Assembly (NCBI GenBank): GCA_964016885.1
Contig: OZ024741.1
Coordinates: 287,680,001-287,744,000, forward strand
Reading direction: 5' to 3'
DNA from: Eledone cirrhosa
Taxonomy: Eukaryota
DNA length: 64,000 nucleotides
A program made the position numbers and the translations under genes. The notes below the pieces were generated by a model, which saw nothing but the letters and a program-made list of their open reading frames with translations, searched no databases and was not told the DNA's origin. Positions 3,516 through 64,000 of the stretch are shown here, piece by piece (the stretch's first letter is position 1; each line of letters opens with the position of its first letter).

Positions 3516-3860
3516 TTTATAACCACAAACATTTGCCATTTGCAACATGTACGTAAAAAAATTCCTTTCTTAAAAATGTCAGTTCATTTTATTTGTTTCA
3601 ATTTACGTTTCTATACACTTTACACAAATATTTTCACATGTACGTAAACAACTTCCTTTCTTACAAATCTCACTTCATTTTCTTTCTTTTAACTCACGTT
3701 TCAATACACTTTACACACTCTGTCGCTATACTTACCTAAACAATTTCTTTCAACTCCAAATATTTGTTTCTTTTCCTTCCACGGTCAAAATTTTTCCACA
3801 TTCCATTCACATTACAATTTCTATCTTTAAGTAACTTTCACCATTTATTTTTCACATAAA

Positions 3861-6800
3861 ATGCCACCGAAAAAGAGAAGTCGCCTCGGCCGCCATACGG
3901 CAGCAGCAGCCGCGCAAAAGGCGATTACCGCAAACGAGTCCTCCGAAAAAAAGAATTTCAGACTTTCACAGAGCGCCTTACGTTTAGCGGAATCACGAGC
4001 TGCTGAAACTTTCCAACAGGGCAACGCACGCCGAGCAAAAAAGGCTTCATACGATGCTGCTTACAGGGCTTCAGAGCGTCCGGAAACAAGGTCGAATCGC
4101 ATGGCTAGAAAGGCTGCTGCTGCTGATGATTCAAGGGCTTCAGAGGGCCCACAACAAAGGGCCACTCGACTGGCTAAAAACGCTGCGGTTACTGCTGCTT
4201 CAAGATTTTCGGAACGTTTCGAACTACCGACCACTCACCTTCATAGGAACAAGGCGGCTTTCACTGCTTTCATGCCTTCTCAAGATGCAGACGGCCGGTC
4301 CATTACCATTGCAAACGTCGCTTCTGCTACTGATGCGACACCTTCCCACGACTCAGACCAGCAGCGTTCTACATTCCAGCGGAACAGTCGACGGTGCAAG
4401 GCTACCCGCGGTCTGACGAGTCCACACAGCCCTTACTGGCAACTACGGGCTTTCAAGTATGAGCCCAACTTCAATTACTCAATGCGCGCCGACATAAATA
4501 TTGGGGAAATATGCTTCAATTGCAAATTCTGCAATGCTAAAAAGTGGGCTGGGGAACCACCTGCAATGTGCTGCTTAAACGGTAAGGTAAGCTTGCACCC
4601 TCTTCGGGAGCTGCCAGTCCCTTTGAAGGAATTACTTACTGGTTCGACCTCAAGGTCATCAAAATTCCTTCAACTCATCAGGAAGTACAATTGTGCATTT
4701 CAGATGACTTCTTTCGGGGCTAACGTTGTCAGAGAAACTGGTTGGATGCCTACTTTCAAGGTGCAGGGCCAGGTGTACCACCTTATTGGGTCACTCCAGC
4801 CACTACAAAATTCCAAACCTTCGTTCCTTCAAATTTACTTCATTTCAAACTACAATACGCAAATTGATGTGCGTTTCGGCGTTATTCCACCACCTGCAAA
4901 CACTGACGCTGACAATTTTGACAGGGACGTGCTGCTCAGTCTGCAAAACATGCTTCATGAGCACAACAGCTACATTCGCAGTTTCAAATACGCCTTGGAA
5001 ACAGCCCCTTCACCAAACTTCACCATTGTCATCGATCTGACAAAAGACCTTCTGGGGAGCACGCACGCCGATATAACGCTCCTTCGTGCAATGAAGTGGC
5101 CATAGTTCTCCATGGTGGACAGCACAATAAGCGAGACATAGTTCTTCAAAGCCGCGACAGTGGTCTTCAACGTATTAATGAGACGCATCGTTCATATGAC
5201 GCCCTGCAGTATCCCCTTCTTTTTCCGTACGGAGAAGACGGGTACCATTTCGGCATTCCTCACCACAAACCAAACTAGCCCACTGCTGCGACATCTAAAA
5301 CTGTTTCATGCATGGCTTTGTACACATACCGCTTCATGACAAGGCATAATGATTTTAGCCCCCTGCACAGCTCACGGGAACTGTTTCACCAGTTTGCAGT
5401 TGACATGGCTGCAAAGATGGAGTCCGAGAGACTGTGCTTCATAAAATTGAATCAGAGGCAGCTGCGAGTAGACTCCTACATCCATTTGCGTGACGGCATC
5501 AGGAATGACACTGACCCCCGGAACATCGGCAAAATGTGCATTCTCCTCTCAACCTATAAGGGGGTGTTGGGGGGGGGGGGGGGGGGGGGCGGTACATGCA
5601 CGAGCGAACACAAGACGCTATGACTTACGTTCGGCATTATGGGCGACCCGATTTATTCATCACCTTTACATGTAACCCCAAGTGGGTTGAGGTTACGCGG
5701 GAACTTATCCCAGGGCAGCAGTACTGCCATCGGCATGATATTATTGCAAGGGTTTTCAGGCAGAAGCTCGCTAAGCTCATTGATTTAATTTTTAAAAGGG
5801 CAGGTTTTGGGGCCTGTTAAGTGCCACATGTATACTGTTGAGTGGCAGAAAAGAGGGTTGTCACACGCGCACATTTTGCTTTGGTTGGTCAACAAAATAG
5901 ACCCGACAGTTCTTGATGACATCATCGCAGCAGAAATCCCGGACCCAACTGTTGACCGGCAGCTGTACGACATTGTGAAGGCACACATGCTGCACGGTCC
6001 GTGCGGTCCCGGTTTTCCTCATGCCACAAAGACCATGTGTGCACTAAACGATACCCAAAGAGGTTCGTGGAGGAGACCCAGACCGGCCGCGACGGATACC
6101 CACTGTACAGACGAAGGCACCCTGACAATGGTGGATTCACTATGACATTGCGGGGTCATCAAGTGGATAATAGGTGGGTAGTCCCGTACTGTCCATTTCT
6201 GATGAAAACTTTTAACGCTCACATAAATGTGGAGTTCTGTCATTCAGTAAAGTCTATAAAGTATATATGCAAATATGTTAACAAGGGTTCTGACGCTGCC
6301 ATGCTCGGCCTTCAAAAGGACAATAGCATGGACGAGGTGTCGGAGTACTTGGCAGGTCGATACATAAGCAGTGGTGAAACTTTTTGGCGGATATTCGGGT
6401 TTCCGCTTCACCAAAGGCACCCCGCCATCATACAACTAGCGGTTCATTTGGAAAATGGCCAGCGAGCTTACTTTACTGAACAGACTGCTGCTCAATTGGC
6501 GGCAAATCCAGAACAAACAACTTTGACCGGTTTCTTTAGGCTTTGCCAAATTGACACATTTGCCAAAACACTTTTATACCCTCAGGTCCCGTCCTACTAC
6601 GTGTGGTCAAACAACAATTGGGTGCGTAGGAAGTCGGGTCAGGATGTTGAAGGACATCCTGGTGTCAAGTTTAACAGTTGTCTAGGAAAAGTGTACACTG
6701 TACCTCCAAACCAACATGAGTGTTTTCACCTTCTACTCCATGAGGTTTTTCCTGGACGCTCCTGGGGGCACTGGGAAAACTTTTGTCAACAAATTAATAT

Positions 6801-8020
6801 TGACTGAGATTAGGCGAACACAAGGCATTGCTGTGGCATCATCTGGAATTGCGGCTACTTTGTTGCCAGGCGGCAGGACAGCTCACTCCACTTTCAAGCT
6901 CCCGCTTGACTTAGCGAAGACTGAGACACCAACTTGCAACATCAGTAACAGCTCCGATCAGGCAGAAGTCTTCAGACGATGCAAGCTTATCGTTTGGGAT
7001 GAATGCACGATGGCCCACAGAGGTGCTCTTGAGGCACTAGACATCAAACACTCTACAGCTCCCATGGGAGGCATAACACTTCTTCTTTCAGGGGACTTCC
7101 GGCAAACACTTCCCGTTATTCCCAAAGGGACTAGAGCTGGTGCAGTAAGTGCGTGTCTTAAGTCATCCACATTGTGGCCACTGGTGAACACTCTCAAACT
7201 TAACACTAACATGCGTGCTCATATGCGACGTGATATCACATCAGCAGCATTTTCTCACACCCTCCTTGCACTTGGCGAAGGCAAAATAACCGGGGATGAA
7301 AATGATAATATTGCCATCGATTCCATTTGTACCATTGTTAATACGCCTTCTGATCTCACAGATGCAGTGTTCCCAGATCTACAAGCTAATTATCAGAATA
7401 TGGATTGGATTGGCCAAAGGGCTATTCTGGCCCCGAGGAATAAAACTGTTCACCATATTAATGATCAAATGCTAAACCTCATTCCTGGGGATGGCTATGT
7501 ATATAAGCCTATCGATACAACTCCTGACCCAGAGGACGTCATCAACTATCCAATAGAGGTATTCAATTCCGTTGAGCCCCCCGGACTACCACCACACATT
7601 CTCAAACTTAAAGTTGGTGCCCCTATAATGCTCATTAGAAATTTGGTTCCCCCGAAACAATGCAATGGCACACGTTTGATCGTTAAGTCCTTATCTCCCA
7701 ATCCTATTGAGGCCACGATTATCACAGGGTGCGGTCGAGGCAACGTTGTGCTCATACCTAGGATGCATGTTTTCCCATCAGGAGCAGACCTACCTTTCAC
7801 ATTTCGGAGGTCCCATTTCCCAGTAAGGCCATGTTTCGCTATGTCAATTAACAAAGCGCAGGGTCAAACACTGTCTGTGGCGGGAATACATTTGGGGGAG
7901 CCATGTTTCTCTCATGGTCAGCTTTACGTTGGCTGCTCGCGTGTTGGCTGCAAGAGTGATGCTTTCGCGTTCGTTCCACAACGAAAAACGAAAAACATTG
8001 TGTACAAGGAGGTTTTATAG
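3861..8020 (+). pseudogene. Helitron RepHel (HUH Rep + PIF1-family helicase) pseudogene, frameshifted, with an internal deletion
   Basis: Rep motifs PDLFITFTCNPKW, EWQKRGLSHAHILLW and KYICKYVNKG; helicase motifs DAPGGTGKT, IVWDEC, GDFRQTLPV, AMSINKAQGQT and HGQLYV; split over ORFs 3861, 5096, 5312, 5596, 5807, 6001 and 6716. Confidence 0.95.
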
Positions 8021-9592: not shown

Positions 9593-9624
9593 CGAGTGCA
9601 TTAATAATTATTAATAGTGTACTA

Positions 9625-9655
<31 letters not shown>

Positions 9656-9845
9656 TATTATTACTTTTTTTTTTTTTTTTTCCAATTCAATGATGTTCCA
9701 GAACAATATAAAAGAGATAATTGGCAATTTAGGTTCTGGAACAAAAAAGATAATTGGCAATAAGGGCAGGGGCCCCAGGTTATCACAGCCTGGGCCCGCT
9801 CGTCATCGTGCCATTGTAATAGAGCCAAACAAGGCATTTACTAAT

Positions 9846-11800
9846 GAAAGTGAATCTGGTTTTCGTGCTGGACGCGGCACTACTGATATGATCTTCTCAG
9901 CTAGACAGCTCCAGGAGAGGTGCATGGAACAAGGCTTAGATCTGTATCAGGTTTTTGTCGATCTGACGAAAGCTTTCGATACTGTTAACGGAGATGCATT
10001 ATGGAAGGTTCTCCAGAAACTTGGTTGCCCTGATAAGTTCCTTGCTTTAGTTAGGTCTTTCCATGACGACATGAAGGCTTGGGTTAATGTCGGAGGAAAC
10101 ATGTCGGAGCCTATCTCAGTAAAAAATGGAGTGAAACAGGGGGATATTCCAGCACCGATCCTGTTTGCCATATACTTTGCAATGGTTTTCTGTATTGCAT
10201 TCAGGAATTGCGAGCATGGTGTTTACATCCGATATCGAACCTCAGGCAGCATATTTAACATCAGGCGTTTTGCTGCGAAGACAAAAGTATTTACATCAAT
10301 CATAAGAGACCTCTTGTATGCAGATGATTGCGATCTTGTAGCACACACAGAGAGTGATATGCAGCACATTTTGAATGCATTTTCTGACGCTTGCACTGCC
10401 CTGGGATTGACTGTCAGTCTCAAGAAAACCGTCGTCATGTACCAACCTGCCCCTGGTAAGCAGTACACTGAACCAAACATCTATGTGTATGGCAAACTAC
10501 TTGGAGTGGTTGATCAGTTTGTCTACCTGGGAAGCACTGTCAATCGATACGGCAACCTTGACAGTGAAATCTCACTTAGGATTAGGAAAGCAAGTGATGC
10601 ATTCGGAAAGCTAGAAAGGAGACTCTGGGGTCGGAGAGACATATGCAGGAGGACAAAGGTAAAGGTGTACAGGGCATGTGTGCTCTCTTGTCTTCTTTAT
10701 GCTTCCGAGACCTGGGTCACATATCGACACCACCTTAAGCAATTGGAGCGTTTCCATCAGATGTGTCTCAGACGGATCCATGGCGTTCACTGGAGGGAGC
10801 ACATCAGTGATGTCGAGATTTTGGAAAGCTCTATGTGTGACAGTATAGAAGCTCTTGTGCTTAAGCAGCGACTCCGTTGGAGTGGTCACTTTGCCAGGAT
10901 GAAGGATTCTAGAATACCAAAACAACTCTTTTATGGAGAGTTGGTTAAAGGAAAACGACCGCCACATAAACCAAAAAAGAGGTATAAGGATTCCTTGAAA
11001 GCCTCTCTGAAAGACGCTAACATCTCTGCTGATACATGGGAAAATATTGCTGCTGATCTTAATAAATGGAGAAAGACTGTATATGATGGAAAAGTTGCCT
11101 TTGAGGTATCTCGAATCGCATACGAGAAAGTAAAGCGGGATGTGAGGAAGGGCATTGCTGTTGCACTTCCAGACGGCGAGGGTCCTCCTATGGTGCTGAC
11201 ATGCAGCGTCTGTGCGAGACTCTGCCTAAGCAAAGCTGGACTCGAAAGTCATCTTCGCAGTCATAAAGTAAGACCAGTGGTTGACTACCAGGCTGCTGTT
11301 GGAGATGCTACTCATCATGCTTGCCAAACATGTGGTAGAGAATGTAGATCAGCAGGAGGGCTCAAGCGACGTGCAAGAGTACATGAACTCCAACCACAGC
11401 CGGCTATTCCCAGTGAATGTTTTGGTTGCCGACTCTGTGCAAGACATTTTAGATCATTGGCTAGGCTAAAAAGCCACATTCGATCGCAGCGCTGTTAGTT
11501 GCTATCGTATGTGTGTGTGTGTATATATATGTTTATGTGTGTGCGTGTATGTGTATATATATAGGTATATGTATATTATTATTGTTGTTGTCGTTATTAT
11601 TATTGTTATTATTTTATTATTATTGTTATTAATATATGTGTGTGTGTGTGTATATGTATGTGTGTGTATGTGTGTATGTGTATATGTGTGTATATATATA
11701 TTTCTTTTTTTTATTTTATTTTATTTTTTATTTATTTATTAATTTTTTTTTTCTCCTCGTGCAATGGCCATACTCGATAATGAGGGGGCAGCCATCATCA
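9846..11800 (+). mobile_element. RTE-clade LINE, RT domain to 3' end (no endonuclease); open frame to 11498
   Basis: ESESGFRAGRG, VDLTKAFDTV, GVKQGD, LLYADD, FVYLGS, LRWSGH, RIPKQLFYGEL; C-terminal C2H2-like fingers; 3' UTR split by a microsatellite at 11509-11750; (TGTA)n-like tail. Confidence 0.93.
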
Positions 11801-19656: not shown

Positions 19657-22320
19657 AGTGTCAATGAGGCCCCATCCCAGAAAGACATAGATTCCTTTTG
19701 GAAAAAAATATGGGGTGAAAAGAAGAATTTCAACCAAGATGCAGTGTGGCTAAGAGAAATCCGAAAGAACTATTGCTCCTACACTACAACAAAAACATAC
19801 GAAATAATTGAGGGTACCCTTGAGACTGATAGGAAAACTCCAAGATAAGAAAACACCAGGAAGAGACATGATTGTCGGCTACTGGTACAAAAAACTGATA
19901 TTCTATCGGAGGTATCTTACTGACCGCCACCAACAAGTTCTTAAGGGAAATACACTTATACCAGAATGGTTGACATTAGCACAAACATTACTGGTCCTCA
20001 AGAACAAAGACACCCACTTGGCAAAAAACTACCGACCCATTGCATGCCAGAACCTGATGAATAAGATGTATACAGCCTGCCTGGACCTATTCTTCCAAGA
20101 TCACTGTGAAAATAATAACATCATCACAGATGAACAAGCAGCTGGAAAGAAAGGAGTTTGGGGATGTGCTGAACAACTCCTAATCTATAAAACTGCGATG
20201 TCGGAGGTGCGACAACTTAGGAGGAATATGGCTACAGTCTGGCTGGACTACAGGAAAGCTTTCAATTCTGTTCCCCACTCTTGGATAATAGAGGCCCACC
20301 AACTTGTTAAAGTGCCAGACATTGTCAGAGCCATAGAGAAGCTGTCTTATCCTAAGGTTAAAGACAGAGAGGGAGGACTCTATTTTCATTGATAAAATAA
20401 AATATCACAGGGGTATATTTCAGGGAGACAGTCTCTCTGTGATATTATTCATCTTGTCATTAAACCCCTTGTCCTTTCTGCTCAAGAAATGTGAGGGATA
20501 CATCATTGGCTCACAGGAGGACAGAAATACGAACCTAACCCATAATTTCTTTGTGGATGATCTGAAACTCTATGGCAAGAACATGGATGGGATGAAGAAA
20601 AATCTTGACCTGGTTACAACGTTCTCAAAGGATATAGGAATGGAGTTTGGCCAAGATAAATGCTCATATATGACTGTAAAGCGGGGAAAAACAACAACCC
20701 AATCTAGCAATATTGTCATCAATGGCCTAACTGTTTCACCGATATCTGATGAGGACTGCTACAGATACCTGCGGATAGATGAGAACATATCCTATAATGG
20801 TATCTGTAATAAAGAACGCGTAACCAGGGAATACTACACCCGGTTAAGAAATATTTTGTCATCGGAACTCTCTGCGCACAATAAAACAGTGGCTCACAAT
20901 GTGTTTGCTGTGCCTGTCCTAACACCAACGTTTGGAATACTCAATTGGACAATAGACGAAATCCGAGCAGTTGATGTTGGAACTCGAAAAATACTAAACA
21001 ACACCGGAAACTTCCACATCAACAGTGACATAGACCGCCTTTACTTGAAACGTAAGCAGGGAGGCAGAGGCCTAACTTCAGTCCAGACAGCATTTGAATG
21101 TCGCATCATATCCTTCCGACAACATCTACGAACCTCGAAGCGTAGGAGTCCGTCTCTCGAGCAAGTCTATCTGCATGAAACAGATAAGATCATGAGAGTT
21201 TGGAAGGAACTCCTCGAGAGATATTCCCTGTGTGATAATCAGAAACTCACACCCAGGGAAGTCGCTCAGCAGTATCGCAGTGAATCCATGGAGGAAAAAC
21301 TGAATGCTTATCAGCAAAACATCATGCATGGATATGTTGCCAGGAAGCTCCAGAGTGAGATAAGGAAAGTAGTCTATCTTGGACCAACAACCACTATATT
21401 GGCTCCCACTTTGAAGGATACACTTTTGCAATCCAAGAACAGGAAATTAACACGAAATACCTGATTCACAAAAGAGATAGGGATGCACGCAAAACACCTA
21501 GATGTGATAACAAGTGCAGACTCTGCAGAACTAACATCGAAGATATCACCCATGTCATCAGCAGCTGTCCAAAGATGTCATCGCGGTACTATCTACCTAT
21601 GAGGTATGATGCAGTGGCCAAAACACTGTACAATGCAGTCCGTAAAAAAGATAGCCCCGATAATAAACACATTAAAAGCTACAACAATGTGGAAGACATC
21701 CACGTACATAATATGAAAGAGTACTGGTGGAATGTTCCAGTAAAAACCCCAATAAAATGCAGGCATATCAGACCAGATATTATAATATGGGACAGGGAGA
21801 AGAAAGCATGCACAGTAGTGGAAATTAGCTGCCCAGCAGATGCCAATATAATATCAAAGATTAGCGAAATGCAGAACTGATGAGAAATCTGCAGATACTC
21901 CACCCTGATTACACCTTCAGATTTATGCCTGTGATTATTGGGGCACTGGGGTATGTTGGTAACTGCCTCAATACAAATCTTGAGAAGCTAGGCTTCACAG
22001 GAACAGAAAGAACACAACTAGTTAGGAAATCACAAGTACAATCCATTAATGGAACAGTAAAAATACGTAAAACATTCCAAAAATGTTGCATCTAATAACT
22101 GCATATACACATGTACAGATACAAAGCATATATACATGCACACATACAACTCAAAACATACACATCCACACATACAATAACATCCATATCTACACATGCA
22201 TGCATACATAATCTACCTAGTTGATGTTGTGTAAATTCCAATGAGAGAGTCTTGTGTCTATGTTAGAAACTGACTCTCTCTCTATTGGTAAAAATTTGTG
22301 AAATTATAAAACCAGAAGAA
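19657..22320 (+). mobile_element. R4/Dong-like non-LTR retrotransposon (RT + CCHC + restriction-like endonuclease), 5'-truncated, frameshifted
   Basis: YRPIAC, WLDYRKAF, GIFQGDSLS, FVDDLKLY, RLYLKRKQGGRGL, CRLC..EDITHVISSC, RPDIIIWD..VVEISCP; 3'-UTR hairpin at 22238-22288; CATA repeats on both sides. Confidence 0.88.
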
Positions 22321-24291: not shown

Positions 24292-24897
24292 ATAAACGGA
24301 AAAAATGAAACGATATTTCATTTCCCACTCTTAGTACGGCTGTTACTTAAATATAAGTATGTACACGTACATACATATATGTATACCGACGTACAGTAGT
24401 ATGTATATATATATATATACATACATGCACACATATGCATATGCACGTATGGATTCACCGAATATTTATTATAATGCTCGGTGTGTTTGTAAACAAACAT
24501 CCCGTATTAAGCCGTAGTGTCTAGCAACCACCGTTGCTCGTTTGTTCAACACTGACAAAGGAACGCTGTACTAGTTTCAAGCTTGTTAGCTATCGTCAGC
24601 AACGTATACCTTCCTGCCAGATTGTTGAACGTATATACTTACCTTATGCATATTAACGGCTGAGTAGCCCAATTTGCATATCGAGTGGGTTAATTGGCCG
24701 GGTGCACCGAAAACGATAAACGGAAAAAATGAAACGATATTTCATTTCCCACTCTTAGTACGGCTGTTACTTAAATATAAGTATGTACACGTACATACAT
24801 ATATGTATACCGACGTACAGTAGTATGTATATATATATATACATACATGCACACATATATATATGCACGTATGGATTCACCGAATATTTATTATAAT
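24292..24897 (-). mobile_element. Non-coding hammerhead-bearing element, ~1.4 copies of a 424-bp unit, in (TA)n
   Basis: Direct repeats 24292-24475 and 24716-24897; hammerhead between them. Confidence 0.8.
24564..24604 (-). ncRNA. Minimal type-I hammerhead ribozyme
   Basis: CGTTG-CTGACGA-T-AGCT(AACA)AGCT-T-GAAA-CTAG-TA-CAGCG. Confidence 0.78.
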
Positions 24898-25347: not shown

Positions 25348-28300
25348 ACTTTCTATTTATTTGCCACCAGGGCATCAAAGATTGGGACAAATACAAGGGA
25401 GGGAGTTTACATACATTTCAAAGGACGTGTAAAAACATATAACAAATAAAATTCAACAATCGAAGTCCTCAATAGGGAGGGGCCGTTGACGTGGGTCGCA
25501 CACACCCCCGAAAAAAATGTGCAACCCTCCTCCTCGGGAGCACAAAGAGCGGGTGCTCCCTTCCTCTCCTCTTTCTTCTCCTCTCTCACCTACAGGCTGA
25601 TATAGAGAGAAGGCCCATTAACTCGGGCCATTCTCGCCACTTTCACCCACCTTTCATAAAACTTGCTGGGGTAGAGCACCTCTCTCTCCATTCTGATCCT
25701 TCTTCTAAAATAGTACTTGAAAAAAAGGACCAGTTGTTGGCCGGAGAGAAAAGTGTCTGACCTCAGCCCTTTCAACCTCGTCCACCATACAACATCTTTT
25801 GCCATAGCTATCACACAAAGGAAAACCGCCTCTCCTTCGTTTTCGAAGGGGGGAGGCGGTTTGATCATGACCATGTACTCAGTGGTCAACCGGATTGGTC
25901 CCACCCGCGACAGTAGTCGTTCCACATAGCCCCACAGGTCAGCAACGCCCGGGCAGTGTACGAATGCGTGCGCGACGGTTTCCTCGTCACGCACGCATCT
26001 CGGACAGATCTTCTTCGAGGGGTCCCTACCCAGGCGCCAGTGTCTGTAGAGCTTGTCTCGAACGGGTAGAGTTCCTCGGTAGCACTGCCAAGCCAGGGAC
26101 TTTTGTAAATTGTCCATCGGTCCCGGGCCAAACGTCCTACCGAACATACTGGCTAGCTTGTCTTCCTCCATGCCCAGAGCCTCTCCGAGAGCGTCGTCGC
26201 ACTTGCTGCGCACCAACCCTCTATAGAATGTTGAGGTTGAGTCTCCACTGATTGCCGGATCCGCTTGCCAGAGGGCTGTGAGCGCCTGGGCACATTCAAT
26301 GTGCCAGTCGCCCATTTTTCTCGGTCTTTGCTTGACCCAGGATTGCAGCTCGGTGAGTGAGACGAGTCTCGGAAAGGCTCGCCTCACAAAAGGGGCCCAC
26401 ACCGGCTGACCGGTGAGGAATACCTGGAGGTGCCGTAGCCTTAATGCGTGTCTACGCATCGTCAGCCACGGCATCCCCAGCCCTCCGTTCGAAGGGTGTT
26501 GACTGCAGATGGATCTTCTCACCAAAGGAGCCCGCTTCTTCCAAAGGAATCGGAAGAGCGCGCGCTCTATTTTGGCGAGTGTTTTCGCTGGGCAAGACAC
26601 GACGGTCATGTAGATGACGGACGCTAAATAAGTGTTCGCCACCTCCGCTCGACCTTTCAGGGATAGTTTGCACTCGGCCCACTTCTGGGCGAGTGCAAAC
26701 ATCCTGCCCGTTACCTAGTCCCAGTTTTTCTCCACCTGGAGGTCCGGTCCGAACCAGACCCCGAGCAGCTTCACCGGTCCCTCCGTCCAGTGTCCGACGA
26801 CGCCGTCGGAGGGCATCGGTTTGCCTCTCCACGTTCCGAGTTGCAAACCGAAGGACTTGTCCCGGTTCAGCTTGGCTCCTGTAAACCTTTCATATTCCTC
26901 CAGTAAGGTGCCGATCTGCCCGATTTCCGAGGCGCACAACACCATTACTGTCACGTCATCGGCGGAGGCCGACACCGCTTTCCGCAATCCCAGTTCCAAG
27001 AGGATTCCCTGCAACAGCTCCAGCTTCCGCAGTAGTGGCTCGAGAGCCAGCACATACAGAAAGGAGGAGAGAGGGCATCCCTGTCGAATGGTTCGCGCGA
27101 TTGGGACGGCTCCGAGAGGTAGCCGTTCACCTTGACCCTCGAGCAGGTGTTGCTGCTGTGCATTGCAGCAATCCATCCCCTGAAAACGGGTCCGAAGCCT
27201 GCCGCTGCGAGCACCGCATCCAGGTACCGATGGTCGCCCCTACCGAACGCCTTAGATTGATCCAAGTTGATCAGGGCCCCACCAAAGCCGGGTTCGTTCC
27301 CTACCCTCTCTACGATGTATCGCATGAGGTGGAGGTTGTCGTGTATGGACCTGGACGGGATTGCGCATGTCTGCGCTTCTCCCACCAGGTTCCCGACGAC
27401 AAGCGCCAACCTCTTCGCTAACACCTTGGCCAAAATCTTTAACTCTGTGTGTAGCAGAGTTATGGGCCTGAAGTTATCTATGTCATCCCCCTTGTTCTCG
27501 TCCTTCCTCACCAGCCTGACTACGCCCTTGGTCACAGAACTGGGAATTCTCCCGTCCTGTTGCCAGTTGCAGTAGACCGCCTCGAGGATATTGGAGAACA
27601 AGTCCGGCATCGCTACATAAAGTTCGTATGGTAAACCATCGAGACCGGGAGCTTTGCGTTTGCCGCATTGGCTCGGCACTTCCCCTATCTCAGCGGCTGA
27701 AATCGGCCTTTCGCATGACTTCGCCTCCCCGTCCGAGAGCCGCGGCAGACCGTCGAGGTATGGACCTAAATCCATGGCACCCGGCCCGCCGCCCCTCCCA
27801 AACAGTCGTGCAAAGCGCCGTTGAAAGGCCGCGCACATCCGCTCAGGTTCAAGGATCACGCGTCCATCCTGGTCCTTCAAAGACCGAATCGTGGACTTGT
27901 TTCCACTTTTTGCCTCTGTCACTCGGGCCCAGCTAACAGCTTTGGCTCCCTCGTTACCCAGACCACGTATTTTACTCCTGACAACACAGCCCTTGTGCTT
28001 CGCGTCAAAGAACTGGTCTAGGGCCGTACTTGACGCCAGCAGGCCGGCCACGTTGCCACTCCTAATCGCCTCTTCTACTCTATCTATCAATTCCCTTTTA
28101 GTTCTACTCCTATCTGATGCTAATTCCTGACTAAAACCTATCGATTCTATTCTAATTTCTCTCTTGAGAGAGCCCCACCACCTGCTGTTGACAATTGCCC
28201 CCCGATAACCGCTGCTTAACTAGAGTGCTAATCCGCTTACTGTAAGCTTTGTTTGTCGGTAAGGACACGTTTAGCTTCCAGTAACCGGGTCCTTGTCTAT

Positions 28301-49138: not shown

Positions 49139-49190
<52 letters not shown>

Positions 49191-49327
49191 AGAAACACAG
49201 TAAACCGTGTGTCTAATATTACGAGGGTTGAAAGACCACATTTGTTTGAAAAATTTAACCATGAAGCAGACAGAATGATAAAATAAAATTAAATTATATT
49301 ATACAAACCGCCTCAATAACAATTATA

Positions 49328-49408
49328 TCTCTCGGACAGATTAGGGATAATCTGTTTCGTCCAGAGTGTGTGTTGCAACAGATAATCCAGGGCATCATCA
49401 GCGAGAGA
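49328..49408 (-). ncRNA. Type-I hammerhead ribozyme (mirror copy, one stem II mismatch)
   Basis: Reverse complement of 49657-49736 with GGAC instead of GGGC in stem II. Confidence 0.8.
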
Positions 49409-49656
49409 ATCTGATTAAATGCGACAAACACAATAGTACCAACGTTCACACAGAAAGATGAATTTATCACCTCGTGCGCCGCAAGTCAAAAGTGGTATGA
49501 GTGTATTGGTTAGAAACAACAGTCCAACACACGAAACTTAATAAGCTCACCTCATGAGGGAGCCGAAATATAAATGAAAGTTAGAGTTAATAAGGTGATA
49601 AATTCATCTTTCTGTGTGAACGTTGGTACTATTGTGTTTGTCGCATTTAATCAGAT

Positions 49657-49736
49657 TCTCTCGCTGATGATGCCCTGGATTATCTGTTGCAAACACACTC
49701 TGGGCGAAACAGATTATCCCTAATCTGTCCGAGAGA
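49657..49736 (+). ncRNA. Canonical type-I hammerhead ribozyme
   Basis: TCTCTCG-CTGATGA-T-GCCC...GGGC-GAAA-CAGATTA(TCCC)TAATCTG-TC-CGAGAGA; 7-bp stem I, full stem III, GUC cleavage after 49729. Confidence 0.9.
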
Positions 49737-50306
49737 TATAATTGTTATTGAGGCGGTTTGTATAATATTATTTTATTTTATTTTATCATTTTGTCTGCTT
49801 CATGGTTAAATTTTTCAAACAAATGTGGTCTTTCAACCCTCGTAATATTAGACACACGGTTTACTGTGTTTCTTACTACATATATATTATTATTATAATT
49901 GTTTCTACTTTAGGCACAAGGCCAGCAATTACCCAGTGCATTACTGGTACTTTATTTTATCGACCCCGTAAGGATGAAAGGCAAAGTCCACCTCGGGTAT
50001 TATTATTATAATGCTCAGTATTTATGCATGGAGCTTATTCATTACAGGGTTTCAGTAAGAGTTATTAACTCTAACTTTCATTTATATATATATATATTCA
50101 CACACATACATATAATATAATATATAATATAATATAATAATTGTTTCTACTTTTGGCACAAGGCCAGCAATTACCCAGTACATTACTGGTACTTTATTTT
50201 ATATAATATAATACAATAATGTATAATATAGTATTTATATAATATCTCTGTGTGTGTGTACATAAAAAGAGAGAAAGTGGGCAAGAGAGATGAAGGACAG
50301 ACAGAC

Positions 50307-56539: not shown

Positions 56540-58920
<2,381 letters not shown>

Positions 58921-58929
58921 TATAAATGG

Positions 58930-59235
58930 CTATGTTATCCAGAAACTTGAAAATGATGTTAACATCAATAGGAATGTAGCCTCACTTTGATTGGCGACTG
59001 ATATATCACATCACATTTCTTAGCTTATACTTTCGCAATCCAAGATCAAGAGATATCTATCAAACACCTGTTCAACACAAAAAATAGCAAAGTCCTTAAA
59101 ACCTCCAAAATATCGATTTTGTTACATTTTTGTTGAAAAACATAACAGATATTATCAGCAATTATCCAAAAATGTCAAGATATTAGCTTCGTATGCGACA
59201 TGACACTGTTGTTAAAGCAATATATAATGTCTAGG
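58930..59235 (+). mobile_element. Old R4/Dong-like fragment
   Basis: IQDQEISIKHL and RHDTVVKAIYN, collinear with 21430-21640. Confidence 0.6.
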
Positions 59236-60450: not shown

Positions 60451-60629
60451 CGCTCTACATGTGAATAGGCTTGCACAGAAGGAGTTCATTCTTTTTTTAA
60501 ATTGTATGTAGTCATGTGTACAGTTTACTATAATATCGTATTTTGAGCTGATATAACTTTTTCACCTACATCTTTTCAGTTTTTATATTTGAAAGCGAAT
60601 TTCTTTATATCTATATCTATATATATGTA

Positions 60630-60663
<34 letters not shown>

Positions 60664-60667
<4 letters not shown>

Positions 60668-61200
60668 GACAAACATAGAATATTCGAAAATATTCTGTAT
60701 GTTTATAATAAACATTTTGAAGACCCAATCGCTATAGAATAGAATACGTCACGTATTACAATTTGAGATTCTCGATAAAAGCAAGGGAAGTAATCTACGC
60801 GTTTCATTCTTATTAGAAATCATCAGGATTACATATCCAATGCTTTTATCGAGAACGACACAGCTAGAGACTTATAGAATACTTAGCTGTGTACAGGAAC
60901 TGGTTTGAAAGAGCGGTAGCCGGTCCGGCAGAAATTAGAATTTGGATTTAATGCTCTGAAATAGCGATATATATGTGAAGACAAACATAGAATATTCGAA
61001 AATATTCTGTATGTTTATAATAAACATTTTGAAGACCCAATCGCTATAGAATAGAATACGTCACGTATTACAATTTGAGATTCTCGATAAAAGCAAGGGA
61101 AGTAATCTACGCGTTTCATTCTTATTATAAACATACAGAATATTTTCGAATATTCTATGTTTGTCTTCACATATATATCGCTATTTCAGAGCATTAAATC

Positions 61201-61205
<5 letters not shown>
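60664..61205 (-). mobile_element. Hammerhead-bearing non-coding element: ~1.5 copies of a 312-bp unit plus a fold-back arm
   Basis: Direct repeat at 60664 and 60976; 61122-61205 is the reverse complement of ~60940-61023; (TA)n on both sides. Confidence 0.85.
60790..60832 (-). ncRNA. Minimal type-I hammerhead ribozyme
   Basis: GTAATC-CTGATGA-T-TTCT(AATA)AGAA-T-GAAA-CGCG-TA-GATTAC; perfect 6-bp stem I. Confidence 0.85.
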
Positions 61206-61256
<51 letters not shown>

Positions 61257-61257
<1 letters not shown>

Positions 61258-61591
61258 GGAAAAAATGAAACCAAATTTCATTTCTCACTCTTAGTACGGC
61301 TGTTACTTAAATATAAGTATGTATACGTACATACATATATGTATACAGACGTACAGTAGTATGTATATATATATACATACATGCACACATATATATATGT
61401 ACGTATGGATTCACCGAACATTTATTATAATGCTAGACACTGTACGGCTTAATTCGGGATGTTTGTTTACAAACACACCGAGCATTATAATAAATGTTCG
61501 GTGAATCCATACGTACATATATATATGTGTGCATGTATGTATATATATATACATACTACTGTACGTCTGTATACATATATGTATGTACGTT

Positions 61592-61598
<7 letters not shown>
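61257..61598. mobile_element. Fold-back copy of the 24292 family (does not reach the hammerhead)
   Basis: Left part matches 24297-24478; spacer 61435-61480 is the reverse complement of 24479-24522; right arm from 61481. Confidence 0.85.
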
Positions 61599-61669
<71 letters not shown>

Positions 61670-61694: not shown

Positions 61695-62082
61695 ATATTT
61701 ATTAAAATAACAGATTAAAGTTTAAGCAAAGAATCGCTGCTTTCACCCTTAACGGGATCTTCTGAAACTAACAAAGTCAATCTGTAAACGCAGATGACGT
61801 ATTATTCGTTTTTTCCCGTTCTTTGCCAGCGAACGTTACCACGAACCAAAGTATCGTCTTCCTGTCTTCCTCCGGTTGCAACGTTTTTTGAAATATCCAG
61901 TTCTGCGTTTACAGATTGACTTTGTTAGTTTCAGAAGATCCCGTTAAGGGTGAAAACAGCGATTCTTTGCTTAAATTTAATCTGTTATTTTAATAAATAT
62001 TTGCTCTACGGTTCTTATATATTTGATATATATTTTCCTTATCGAGCCCTCTTTGGATTTTAGTCTTCAATTTTATTATTAT

Positions 62083-62086: not shown

Positions 62087-62156
<70 letters not shown>

Positions 62157-62159
<3 letters not shown>

Positions 62160-62648
62160 GAAGTTATAGTTCACTTGAAGCATTGTGTAATGAGGTATAA
62201 ACGTTTGTATTTGTAAAGCCAAAACAATGCAGAATAAAAAATGCAAATGCAAAAGATATTGTTGACAATTAGTCTTTTACCTTAAATTTATTTAAATATC
62301 CTTAATTTTCGAGATAATATCTCTTCTTCGGAGGGAAGTAAAGCGGTTAAACCAGTGTTCTAAATAGCTTGCCAAGTCATGCTGACAGGAAATGGTATAG
62401 AGAATCTGTTCTATCTCTAATGTCAAAGAGTGAAGGTTAGGTGGATAAAGAGTAGTCTTTCTTTAAAAGGGGTTTTGTACATGTATGTTTAAGTGTGTGG
62501 GAGAATACGTGAAGGTGTAAGTATGTGTGTGTGTGTGTGAGTGTGAGAAGATATGTCTATACGTGAATGTGGGGGATAGATGCTCTATCGTGTTAAAACT
62601 GGTCTTTGTGTGTGTATGTGTGTGTGAGAGAGAATAAGTGGAGGTGTA

Positions 62649-62688
<40 letters not shown>

Positions 62689-64000
62689 TGCGTGTGCGTG
62701 TGTGTGAGAAGGGGGGTGTAAGTATGGGGCTAGATGCTCTATCATAAATTGGGTGTTGAGTTCTAGTCTATTATTGATTGGTGGTTGTGTTGTGTCTACA
62801 ATCAGTGCTTCCTTAATTCTAAGATTGCCGAGGTTTCTTTCCTTAGTTTCTATCCTAACTGTTATGTTTTTGTCGGTGTTCTTGCATTTCACTAGGTGTT
62901 TCTTAAATGAGGAAGCATTAGTATTGAGGTGTTCTTTTATTCTTATGTGAAGTGGTCTGGTGGTGCTACCTGCGTAGAAGTTTCTGCATTTGTCGCACTC
63001 TAATCTGTATACGACGTAAGCCTGGTGGCATAGGTCTGTGTCGTTGATGGGGCAGTTGGCTAGCCTGCAGCGACTGTCATGTCTGGTGGAGTGTCTTTTG
63101 GTTAGCCGTCCGCGTAGAGAAGGTCCTGAGTGGGCTAGTTGGATATCTAGTCCTTCTCGTCTGATAGCTCTGCGGATGGTTGCTATTGTTTCCTCACTGA
63201 AGTGTGAGAGCTTCAGGGAGCAGGTGTTAGTGCCTCCGGTGTGGTGTCCTCTGTTCTTTCTGACACGGTTCGTGGTGGACGTCGGGTATCTGTTCAGTTT
63301 GAGTACTTCCAGAAAATGTGTGGTGTGTGTGTCTCGGTCTCTTGCGTCGGTGCATTTGTTCCAGATACGCGTAGTTCGTTCCTTATGTATCCGAACTTAG
63401 CGCCGGCTGGGAAGGCCGATCTGAAATGTACAAACAGGTCCCTGCTGGCGGCTTTTTTATAGAAGTAGGTGTGGATGTGACCTTACTCTGTTACCCTGAG
63501 TTGGAAGTCCAGTAGGGATAAGGATCCGCGGTCATCAGGGTGTTCCATGCTGAACTTTATACTGGCGTCCATGCTGGAGAATGTCGTGTATATTTTATCC
63601 GCCTCATGGGATGATGTAAGGATGAGTATGTCATCTACATATCGGGTGAAGAAGGTATGGGAATGGCAGGTGTTGAGGGCTCGGCATTCTAGCTGGTTCA
63701 TATAGGTGATGGCCAGCAGGCCCGATAGGCTGGATCCCATGGGTAATCCTGTTGTCTGTCTGTATGTGTAGTGGTGGAAGGTGAAATACGTGTTGTCCAC
63801 TGTGAAGGACAAAAGCTGGTGTATGTCCGTCGAATGGAGGCCGTAACAGTAAATGTCCTCTGCAACCACGCAGTCCGTCAATAAATCGACAGCTGGATGA
63901 GCGGGGACTGTAGTGTAGAGGGAGACAACGTCGAGGCTAAAGGCGTATTTATTTAGTTTGAGTTGTTCTGGTTGGAGTTGGTGTAATCTACGTATGACTT
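62157..64000 (-). mobile_element. Penelope-like element (RT + GIY-YIG), runs off the window; 3' end in (TA)n; minimal hammerhead at 62300-62334
   Basis: YRQTTGLPMGSSLS, RYVDDIL, LSLLDF; VVYRLECDKCRNFYAGSTTRPLHIRIKEH; IKEALIV..QPPINNR; CCT-CCGAAGA-A-GAGAT(ATT)ATCTC-GAAA-ATTA-AGG. Confidence 0.92.

Follow-up and report, generated by a model that had tools for sequence, protein, structure and literature searches.

Introduction

Non-long-terminal-repeat (non-LTR) retrozymes have been defined, and their RNA circles found in coral, mussel and axolotl, with Penelope-like elements (PLEs) proposed as helpers (PMC7229834), and a 2026 preprint backs a PLE origin of retrozymes by co-occurrence and phylogeny (bioRxiv 10.64898/2026.07.22.740005). 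Endonuclease-bearing (EN+) PLEs insert as partial tandems with an inverted, 5'-truncated copy and a 30-40 bp tail and are biased to (TA)n; the tail is often present at one end only, which has been ascribed to endonuclease resolution, and the origin of the tandem and inverted structures has been named an open problem (PMC8557442). In vitro, both strands are cut and extended by the Poseidon PLE of anole, which initiates at two internal positions, one on either side of the tail; it is predicted to form a dimer, ribozyme cleavage is not needed, and the steps after initiation were left unvalidated (PMC11167929). In this sense, retrozymes as well as the inverted copy and the tail of PLEs are already known. 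Here, we analyse an insertion built from a 312-bp unit in a 64,000-nucleotide stretch of the Eledone cirrhosa genome (contig OZ024741.1; the whole stretch is referred to as the window, and positions are counted within it).

Copies of this unit form two inverted arms that start at two fixed sites, which we call S and T. The layout, the pairing of S with T, the independence of the arms and the haplotype common to them are directly observed. From the sequences of the family we suggest that the element is a non-LTR retrozyme moved by PLE machinery via twin priming, probably on one circle, a reading that we regard as fairly probable as a whole; for one part of it, that priming occurred at two ends, our confidence is high.

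The insertion and its family

The unit restarts after exactly 312 bp. Positions 60664-60815 and 60976-61127 match without a mismatch, and the match at this period extends back to 60655 with 60663 as the sole exception (where the flank has A and the unit G). The insertion then turns: 61122-61205 is 100% complementary to 60940-61023, TTATTA (61122-61127) and TAATAA (61018-61023) are common to both arms at the turn point, and TA runs adjoin both ends. A previous, sequence-only reading of this DNA had described the 312-bp restart, a hammerhead, the break inside the second hammerhead at TTATTA, the inverted continuation and the position of the AU run, and all of these statements are confirmed. The strand was absent from that description; we find the hammerhead on the minus strand, so that the RNA runs from right to left and both outer ends are RNA 3'-side ends. 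No open reading frame (ORF) of at least 150 aa was found over the element.

A search of the organism's own genome (3.0 Gb) with the unit gave 211 matches among 39 scored candidates, most of them 99-100% identical, and a 26-nt motif of the unit has 1,025 exact matches genome-wide. The window observation is therefore real and not due to chance, and the family is young, with approximately 1,000 near-identical 312-bp units in the genome. In total, 99 loci were mapped on the unit. The unit search supplied 39 of these, the window among them, and a further 40 and 20 were reached by anchoring at left-type and right-type junctions, respectively. The anchors were taken in list order from the 100 of 138 and 100 of 125 genome-wide junction matches listed, and in the anchored sets a single end was selected and the partner end was free. 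The 99 loci hold 102 elements: 83 have the two-arm inverted form, and the other 19 are complex or run in a single orientation. At the mapped loci the arms are bounded by TA runs, in agreement with the previously proposed TA-run target, and no LTR structure was seen, a primer-binding site or polypurine tract not having been searched for separately.

By sequence criteria, i.e. a tandem 312-bp unit of 34% G+C with a type I hammerhead motif, the lack of an ORF of at least 150 aa and dispersed multimers, the element is a non-LTR retrozyme, and it has the full insertion anatomy of a PLE. The earlier identification as retrozyme is thus borne out by unit size, G+C content, hammerhead motif and dispersal.

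Palindromic chimeras are a known artefact of long-read sequencing. No reads span the window insertion itself, and a fold-back artefact of long-read sequencing or assembly might be considered for it. At the family level, the T junction to a TA run is present in short reads of other samples (727-854 reads), as is one opposite-strand joint (98 and 110 reads, with one start), which argues that the layout is not an assembly artefact; moreover, the arms are unequal, end at two different fixed sites and have different flanks. We regard an artefact as having a negligible chance of being correct.

Outer ends and priming

Outer ends were assigned to class S at unit positions 1-8, or at 304 where the G after the TA run is kept, and to class T at 270-281, to which a subfamily with an altered position 285 also belongs. 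S is paired with T in 71 of the 83 two-arm elements, the remaining 12 having one atypical end, and neither S+S nor T+T occurs among the 83. Likewise, among the junctions listed (100 of 138 and 100 of 125), S faces T in 33 pairs, and S/S and T/T pairs are absent. Site S is placed after the TA run of the unit, the first templated bases of S and T are 35 nt apart, and T lies further 3' on the RNA. In other words, an inverted truncated copy with a 30-40 nt tail at one end, as in PLEs, is present in 71 of 83 elements, and a (TA)n target in the flanks of the mapped loci. Circularly permuted ends, which the sequence-only reading had led one to look for in genomic copies, are not what these copies have: their outer ends are fixed and their inner ends scattered.

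The same rule is found in a sister repeat family (2,709 motif matches; e.g. locus L160 at 2425-2870 and loci L189-L243). This family is older and has the start-site region in common with the unit but not the hammerhead sequence: the T site, the tail and the adjacent hairpin are conserved at 76-82% identity, and the AU run is imperfect. With a rough classifier, 23 of 26 paired loci follow the end rule, a pair not being in view at 24 further loci; at the three loci called S+S, the outer ends on reading begin in tail-like sequence.

In another family, inverted 296-nt arms with outward hammerhead-like motifs lie at window positions 49177-49887. Both outer ends are apparently at the same site, and this pair is a possible exception to the S+T rule in that family.

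The sequence-only reading also proposed priming by annealing of (TA)n to the AU run. For the S end this fits: the target TA run at S is in register with the ATATATAT run of the unit, and the G after the run is absent from most S ends and kept at nine, which places priming inside the run. It does not fit the T end, which has 2 nt of homology to the target and yet is used as often as S. Given the equal use of T with a 2-nt match and the end rule of the sister family with its imperfect AU run, start sites look to be set by protein and structure, with the AU run as an aid.

Arm independence and the centre join

The sequence-only reading explained the inversion by a single cDNA: synthesis starts at the AU run and rolls on, after which the strand snaps back through microhomology and serves as its own template. 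The geometry is possible for the window copy, and such a route would also predict a common haplotype. Its hallmarks, a short arm that is wholly a copy of the long arm and variants mirrored about the centre, are not seen in the family. The second end is a fixed site, and either arm can be the longer one (S in 40 and T in 31 of the 71 S+T elements). In 23 of the 71, a few of them only marginally, the short arm would need sequence past the start of the long arm. At 9 of 83 loci each arm has at least 15 nt unique to it (e.g. at L097 the T arm covers 277-28 and the S arm 1-101); because each of these arms holds sequence absent from the other, neither was copied from the other. Finally, one of 95 variants is mirrored and 94 are unmirrored.

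The joins themselves point in the same direction. Among 70 joins without an N gap, 27 have 1-30 extra or mismatched bases, which counts against a self-copying strand, and 43 are without added bases. Microhomology of at least 2 nt is present in 24 of these 43, versus 18% expected (p = 5e-8), and of at least 4 nt in 9; the overlap at the centre of the window copy is among the longest and not typical. This excess would suit folding back on microhomology, as would a slight excess of short loops, but is better read, by analogy with L1 twin priming, as the join of two cDNAs. Taking the family as a whole, and especially the nine mutually exclusive loci, snap-back is ruled out as the general route; for the window copy alone it is geometrically possible. 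As an account of the arrangement we consider it very unlikely.

Template and hammerhead

As the sequence-only reading had proposed, copying went through more than one round: 105 of 166 arms extend beyond 312 nt, both arms exceed one unit in 34 of 83 elements, and the longest arm has 22 units. The arms of an element carry the same haplotype. At unit position 131 they agree in 56 of 57 clear cases (two mixed cases excluded) versus 55% expected, and the differences per unit amount to 0.8 between opposite arms, 1.9 within arms (a value inflated by locus L095) and 5.2 between loci. Allele 17C has all 19 of its 19 genome matches in one S+T insertion, in 11 + 8 units on the two arms and nowhere else, as expected if one monomer was copied again and again; the same pattern could arise through later conversion or from a donor that the assembly lacks. 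None of 94 unit-private variants is common to both arms in register from the outer ends, unlike the expectation for a mixed linear multimer. Inner ends lie at the hammerhead cut site in 4 of 166 arms, without enrichment, suggesting that the reverse transcriptase (RT) reads through the cut site. Based on these genomic patterns, we consider it likely that both arms were copied from a single circular template.

Two rivals keep priming at two ends and change the template. In the first, the RTs would read an uncleaved linear multimer transcribed from a genomic array, and long arrays would have grown in part by unequal exchange. Unprocessed RNA is the main substrate of the anole enzyme in vitro (PMC11167929), a G variant at the cut site extends over several loci, locus L095 has undergone turnover, and few inner ends lie at the cut, although the last observation fits either template. 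A linear multimer would, however, require every private allele to have been homogeneous in its donor array beforehand, the assembly contains 17C at one locus only, and variants common in register between the arms are lacking at the level of units (0/94). We regard this possibility as rather unlikely. In the second, two separate RNAs from one donor would be used, one per DNA end. Hammerheads with a tiny palindromic stem III, of the kind seen here (2 bp), have been reported to depend on dimerisation for cleavage (PMC4209133), with a single active donor per cell the haplotype would be common to both arms, and the donor may be absent from the assembly. Two free RNAs should often pick the same start site, which none of 71 elements did, and a strictly asymmetric complex would be needed; we find this route improbable.

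The unit carries a type I hammerhead motif with putative self-cleaving activity. On the minus strand CUGAUGA lies at 60826-60820, GAAA at 60805-60802, and GUA precedes a predicted cut between 60796 and 60795. Stem II has 4 bp and is closed by U-U in place of G10.1-C11.1. The fold of the 96-nt hammerhead region has z = -5.95, with none of 200 shuffles equally good, and the core in the locus majority varies at N7 and N17 only. Rfam gives a weak match to HH9 (22.1 bits versus a gathering score of 52, E 0.056). Rfam miRNA matches were set aside: they are below threshold and located on TA-rich hairpins.

The search for a PLE partner, and neighbouring elements

Approximately 1 kb to the right of the insertion, window positions 62152-64000 (minus strand) hold a degenerate PLE with RT and C-terminal GIY-YIG, whose end at the tailed site is in (TA)n. 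Its family is very large, with intact 900-aa frames and no canonical hammerhead in our scan. Both ends could be seen in 16 of its insertions, most of which had been picked as inverted pairs; all 16 combine a tail-less arm with an arm bearing a 40-nt tail. Two further PLE families, with one inverted pair each, follow the same end rule with spacings of approximately 43 and 64 nt, and in one of the two a hammerhead lies 127 nt from S as compared to approximately 131 in the unit; neither family is homologous to the unit. On the basis of this shared anatomy, mobilisation of the retrozyme by a putative PLE partner is likely. The neighbouring PLE was rejected as this partner: its end rule is alike, but it is not homologous to the unit and a canonical hammerhead was not found in it. 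The search for a partner through GIY-YIG loci yielded only more non-coding families between TA runs. The sequence-only reading had named arrays that are fixed-end termini of a coding PLE as the contrary case. In the 99 loci no array runs into an RT or GIY-YIG frame, no coding PLE was found joined to an array, and the best PLE protein match per locus is at least 1.2 kb away.

Two short inverted two-arm insertions of other repeat families lie between TA runs at window positions 61308-61607 and 61718-61978; their arms are unequal in an S+T-like layout, and there are copies of these families elsewhere. Unrelated type I hammerhead families are numerous in the flanks of loci L031-L188 and at window positions 24599 and 37079, suggesting that the genome is rich in retrozyme-like repeats. 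Elsewhere in the window, 3831-8020 (plus strand) contains frames for STPRs and a PIF1 helicase and is likely a Helitron remnant, and 9618-11498, 20337-21464, 25590-28219 and 56919-58981 contain RT and zf-RVT fragments of other retroelements. The coordinates of the insertion are given in Table 1.

Table 1. Features of the two-arm insertion and its flanks, from left to right
Feature	Position in window	Strand	Description
Left target run	60606..60663	none	TA-rich
S arm	60664..61127	minus (RNA sense)	464 nt = 1.49 units; outer end at site S (unit position 1)
First complete unit	60664..60975	minus	312 bp, 34% G+C
Extended stem I	60769..60855	minus	60769-60783 pairs with 60841-60855
Type I hammerhead motif, predicted	60790..60832	minus	6-bp stem I, core CUGAUGA/GAAA, 2-bp palindromic stem III
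Tail segment	60940..60975	minus	35-36 nt, from site T (unit 277-279) to site S (unit 1-2)
ATATATAT run	60967-60974		inside tail segment
Partial second unit	60976..61127	minus	cut within hammerhead stem II
Centre-join microhomology	61122..61127	none	6 nt, among the longest in the family
T arm	61122..61205	plus	84 nt, inverted, tail included; outer end at site T (unit position 277)
Right target run	61206..61256	none	(TA)n

Discussion

Combining the end rule with the haplotype data, we suggest the following route for twin priming on one circle: (i) arrays would be transcribed and processed to a 312-nt circle, (ii) a dimer of a PLE RT/GIY-YIG protein would bind near the hairpin just 5' of S and nick both (TA)n strands, (iii) one RT would start at S with help of the AU run and the second RT at T, (iv) both RTs would roll round the template for a random length, and (v) the two cDNA 3' ends would be joined, either through microhomology of 0-7 nt or with the addition of a few bases, and then filled in. 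We lean slightly towards a more general proposal, in which PLEs with an endonuclease normally integrate by twin priming: a dimer of RTs would use one RNA at sites a tail-length apart, each RT on one cut DNA end. The inverted copy and the tail would then arise in one event, and on a retrozyme circle both RTs could lap the same molecule for many turns, so that arrays would be born in a single step.

Several observations weigh against this scheme. The circle and its cleavage are predictions from genomic DNA, and, as noted above, the anole PLE mainly uses unprocessed RNA. The hammerhead of the unit lacks the G10.1-C11.1 pair. At its predicted cut, GUA is changed to GUG (unit position 133; A to G in the RNA, in a U-A-G context) in 21 units at 10 places, including L079 (5/6 units), L104, L091 and L265-L270. 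From general hammerhead knowledge, poor cutting is expected of GUG. At several loci, which represent at least two haplotype backgrounds, the majority or all of the units carry this variant, suggesting that cleavage there may not be needed; cleavage could be dispensable, or the junction A of the circle could sometimes be edited. A general role of A-to-I template editing in producing the locus-fixed variants was not supported (A>G in 5/24 versus 14/176 singletons, p = 0.06). At L095 (815-7768), variants recur in non-adjacent units of the 22-unit arm, and this locus is a retrozyme insertion that is turning satellite-like by later turnover. Implied loops at the centre range from 0 to 308 nt, short ones being mildly overrepresented (15/71 at 60 nt or less; Kolmogorov-Smirnov p = 0.034), and most of the unmirrored variants may have arisen after insertion, so that both mirror tests lose strength. 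Lastly, no PLE homologous to the unit was found among the 70 GIY-YIG/PLE stretches examined of more than 10,000 candidates.

The strict S+T rule over 71 young insertions leads to a direct test, namely one start site per DNA strand, and a 312-nt template copied by both strands is a convenient substrate for reconstitution. The rule provides a mechanistic fingerprint, beyond co-occurrence and phylogeny, for retrozymes riding on PLE machinery, and the arrays are genomic evidence bearing on rolling-circle reverse transcription of animal circular RNA. A pair of PLE proteins copying one small RNA from both ends of a cut chromosome would explain a shape that has long been without explanation. In the literature searched (mostly open-access papers, main texts), we did not find the S+T pairing rule, its use against snap-back or the evidence for one template.

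In their units the elements described here resemble metazoan non-LTR retrozymes, which are non-coding, dispersed tandems of 150-450 bp with low G+C and one type I hammerhead each, and for which a circular template and a PLE helper have been proposed as well (PMC7229834; bioRxiv 10.64898/2026.07.22.740005). In contrast, two-arm inverted insertions, a tail and fixed start sites are all absent from the accessible text of these two papers, and the preprint ascribes arrays to local amplification (bioRxiv 10.64898/2026.07.22.740005). With EN+ PLEs the unit family shares layout, tail length and target (PMC8557442); it differs from the PLEs as described there in lacking an ORF, in combining tail and inversion in one strict S+T rule and in having arms of up to 22 units. 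The anole Poseidon PLE is similar in its two starts bounding the tail, extension of both strands, predicted dimer and AT-rich target; the accessible text of that study has no mention of circles or retrozymes, describes the start sites as without homology, and draws no connection between the pair of sites and either the two strands or inverted copies (PMC11167929). L1 twin or dual priming likewise involves two RTs on two nicked strands and inversions joined by microhomology or end joining, but there inversion is a variant result, accompanied by internal deletion, and its second site varies (PMC2837659). In the unit family, inversion is what usually results, the second site is as fixed as the first, and the same sequence may be copied many times over in both arms.
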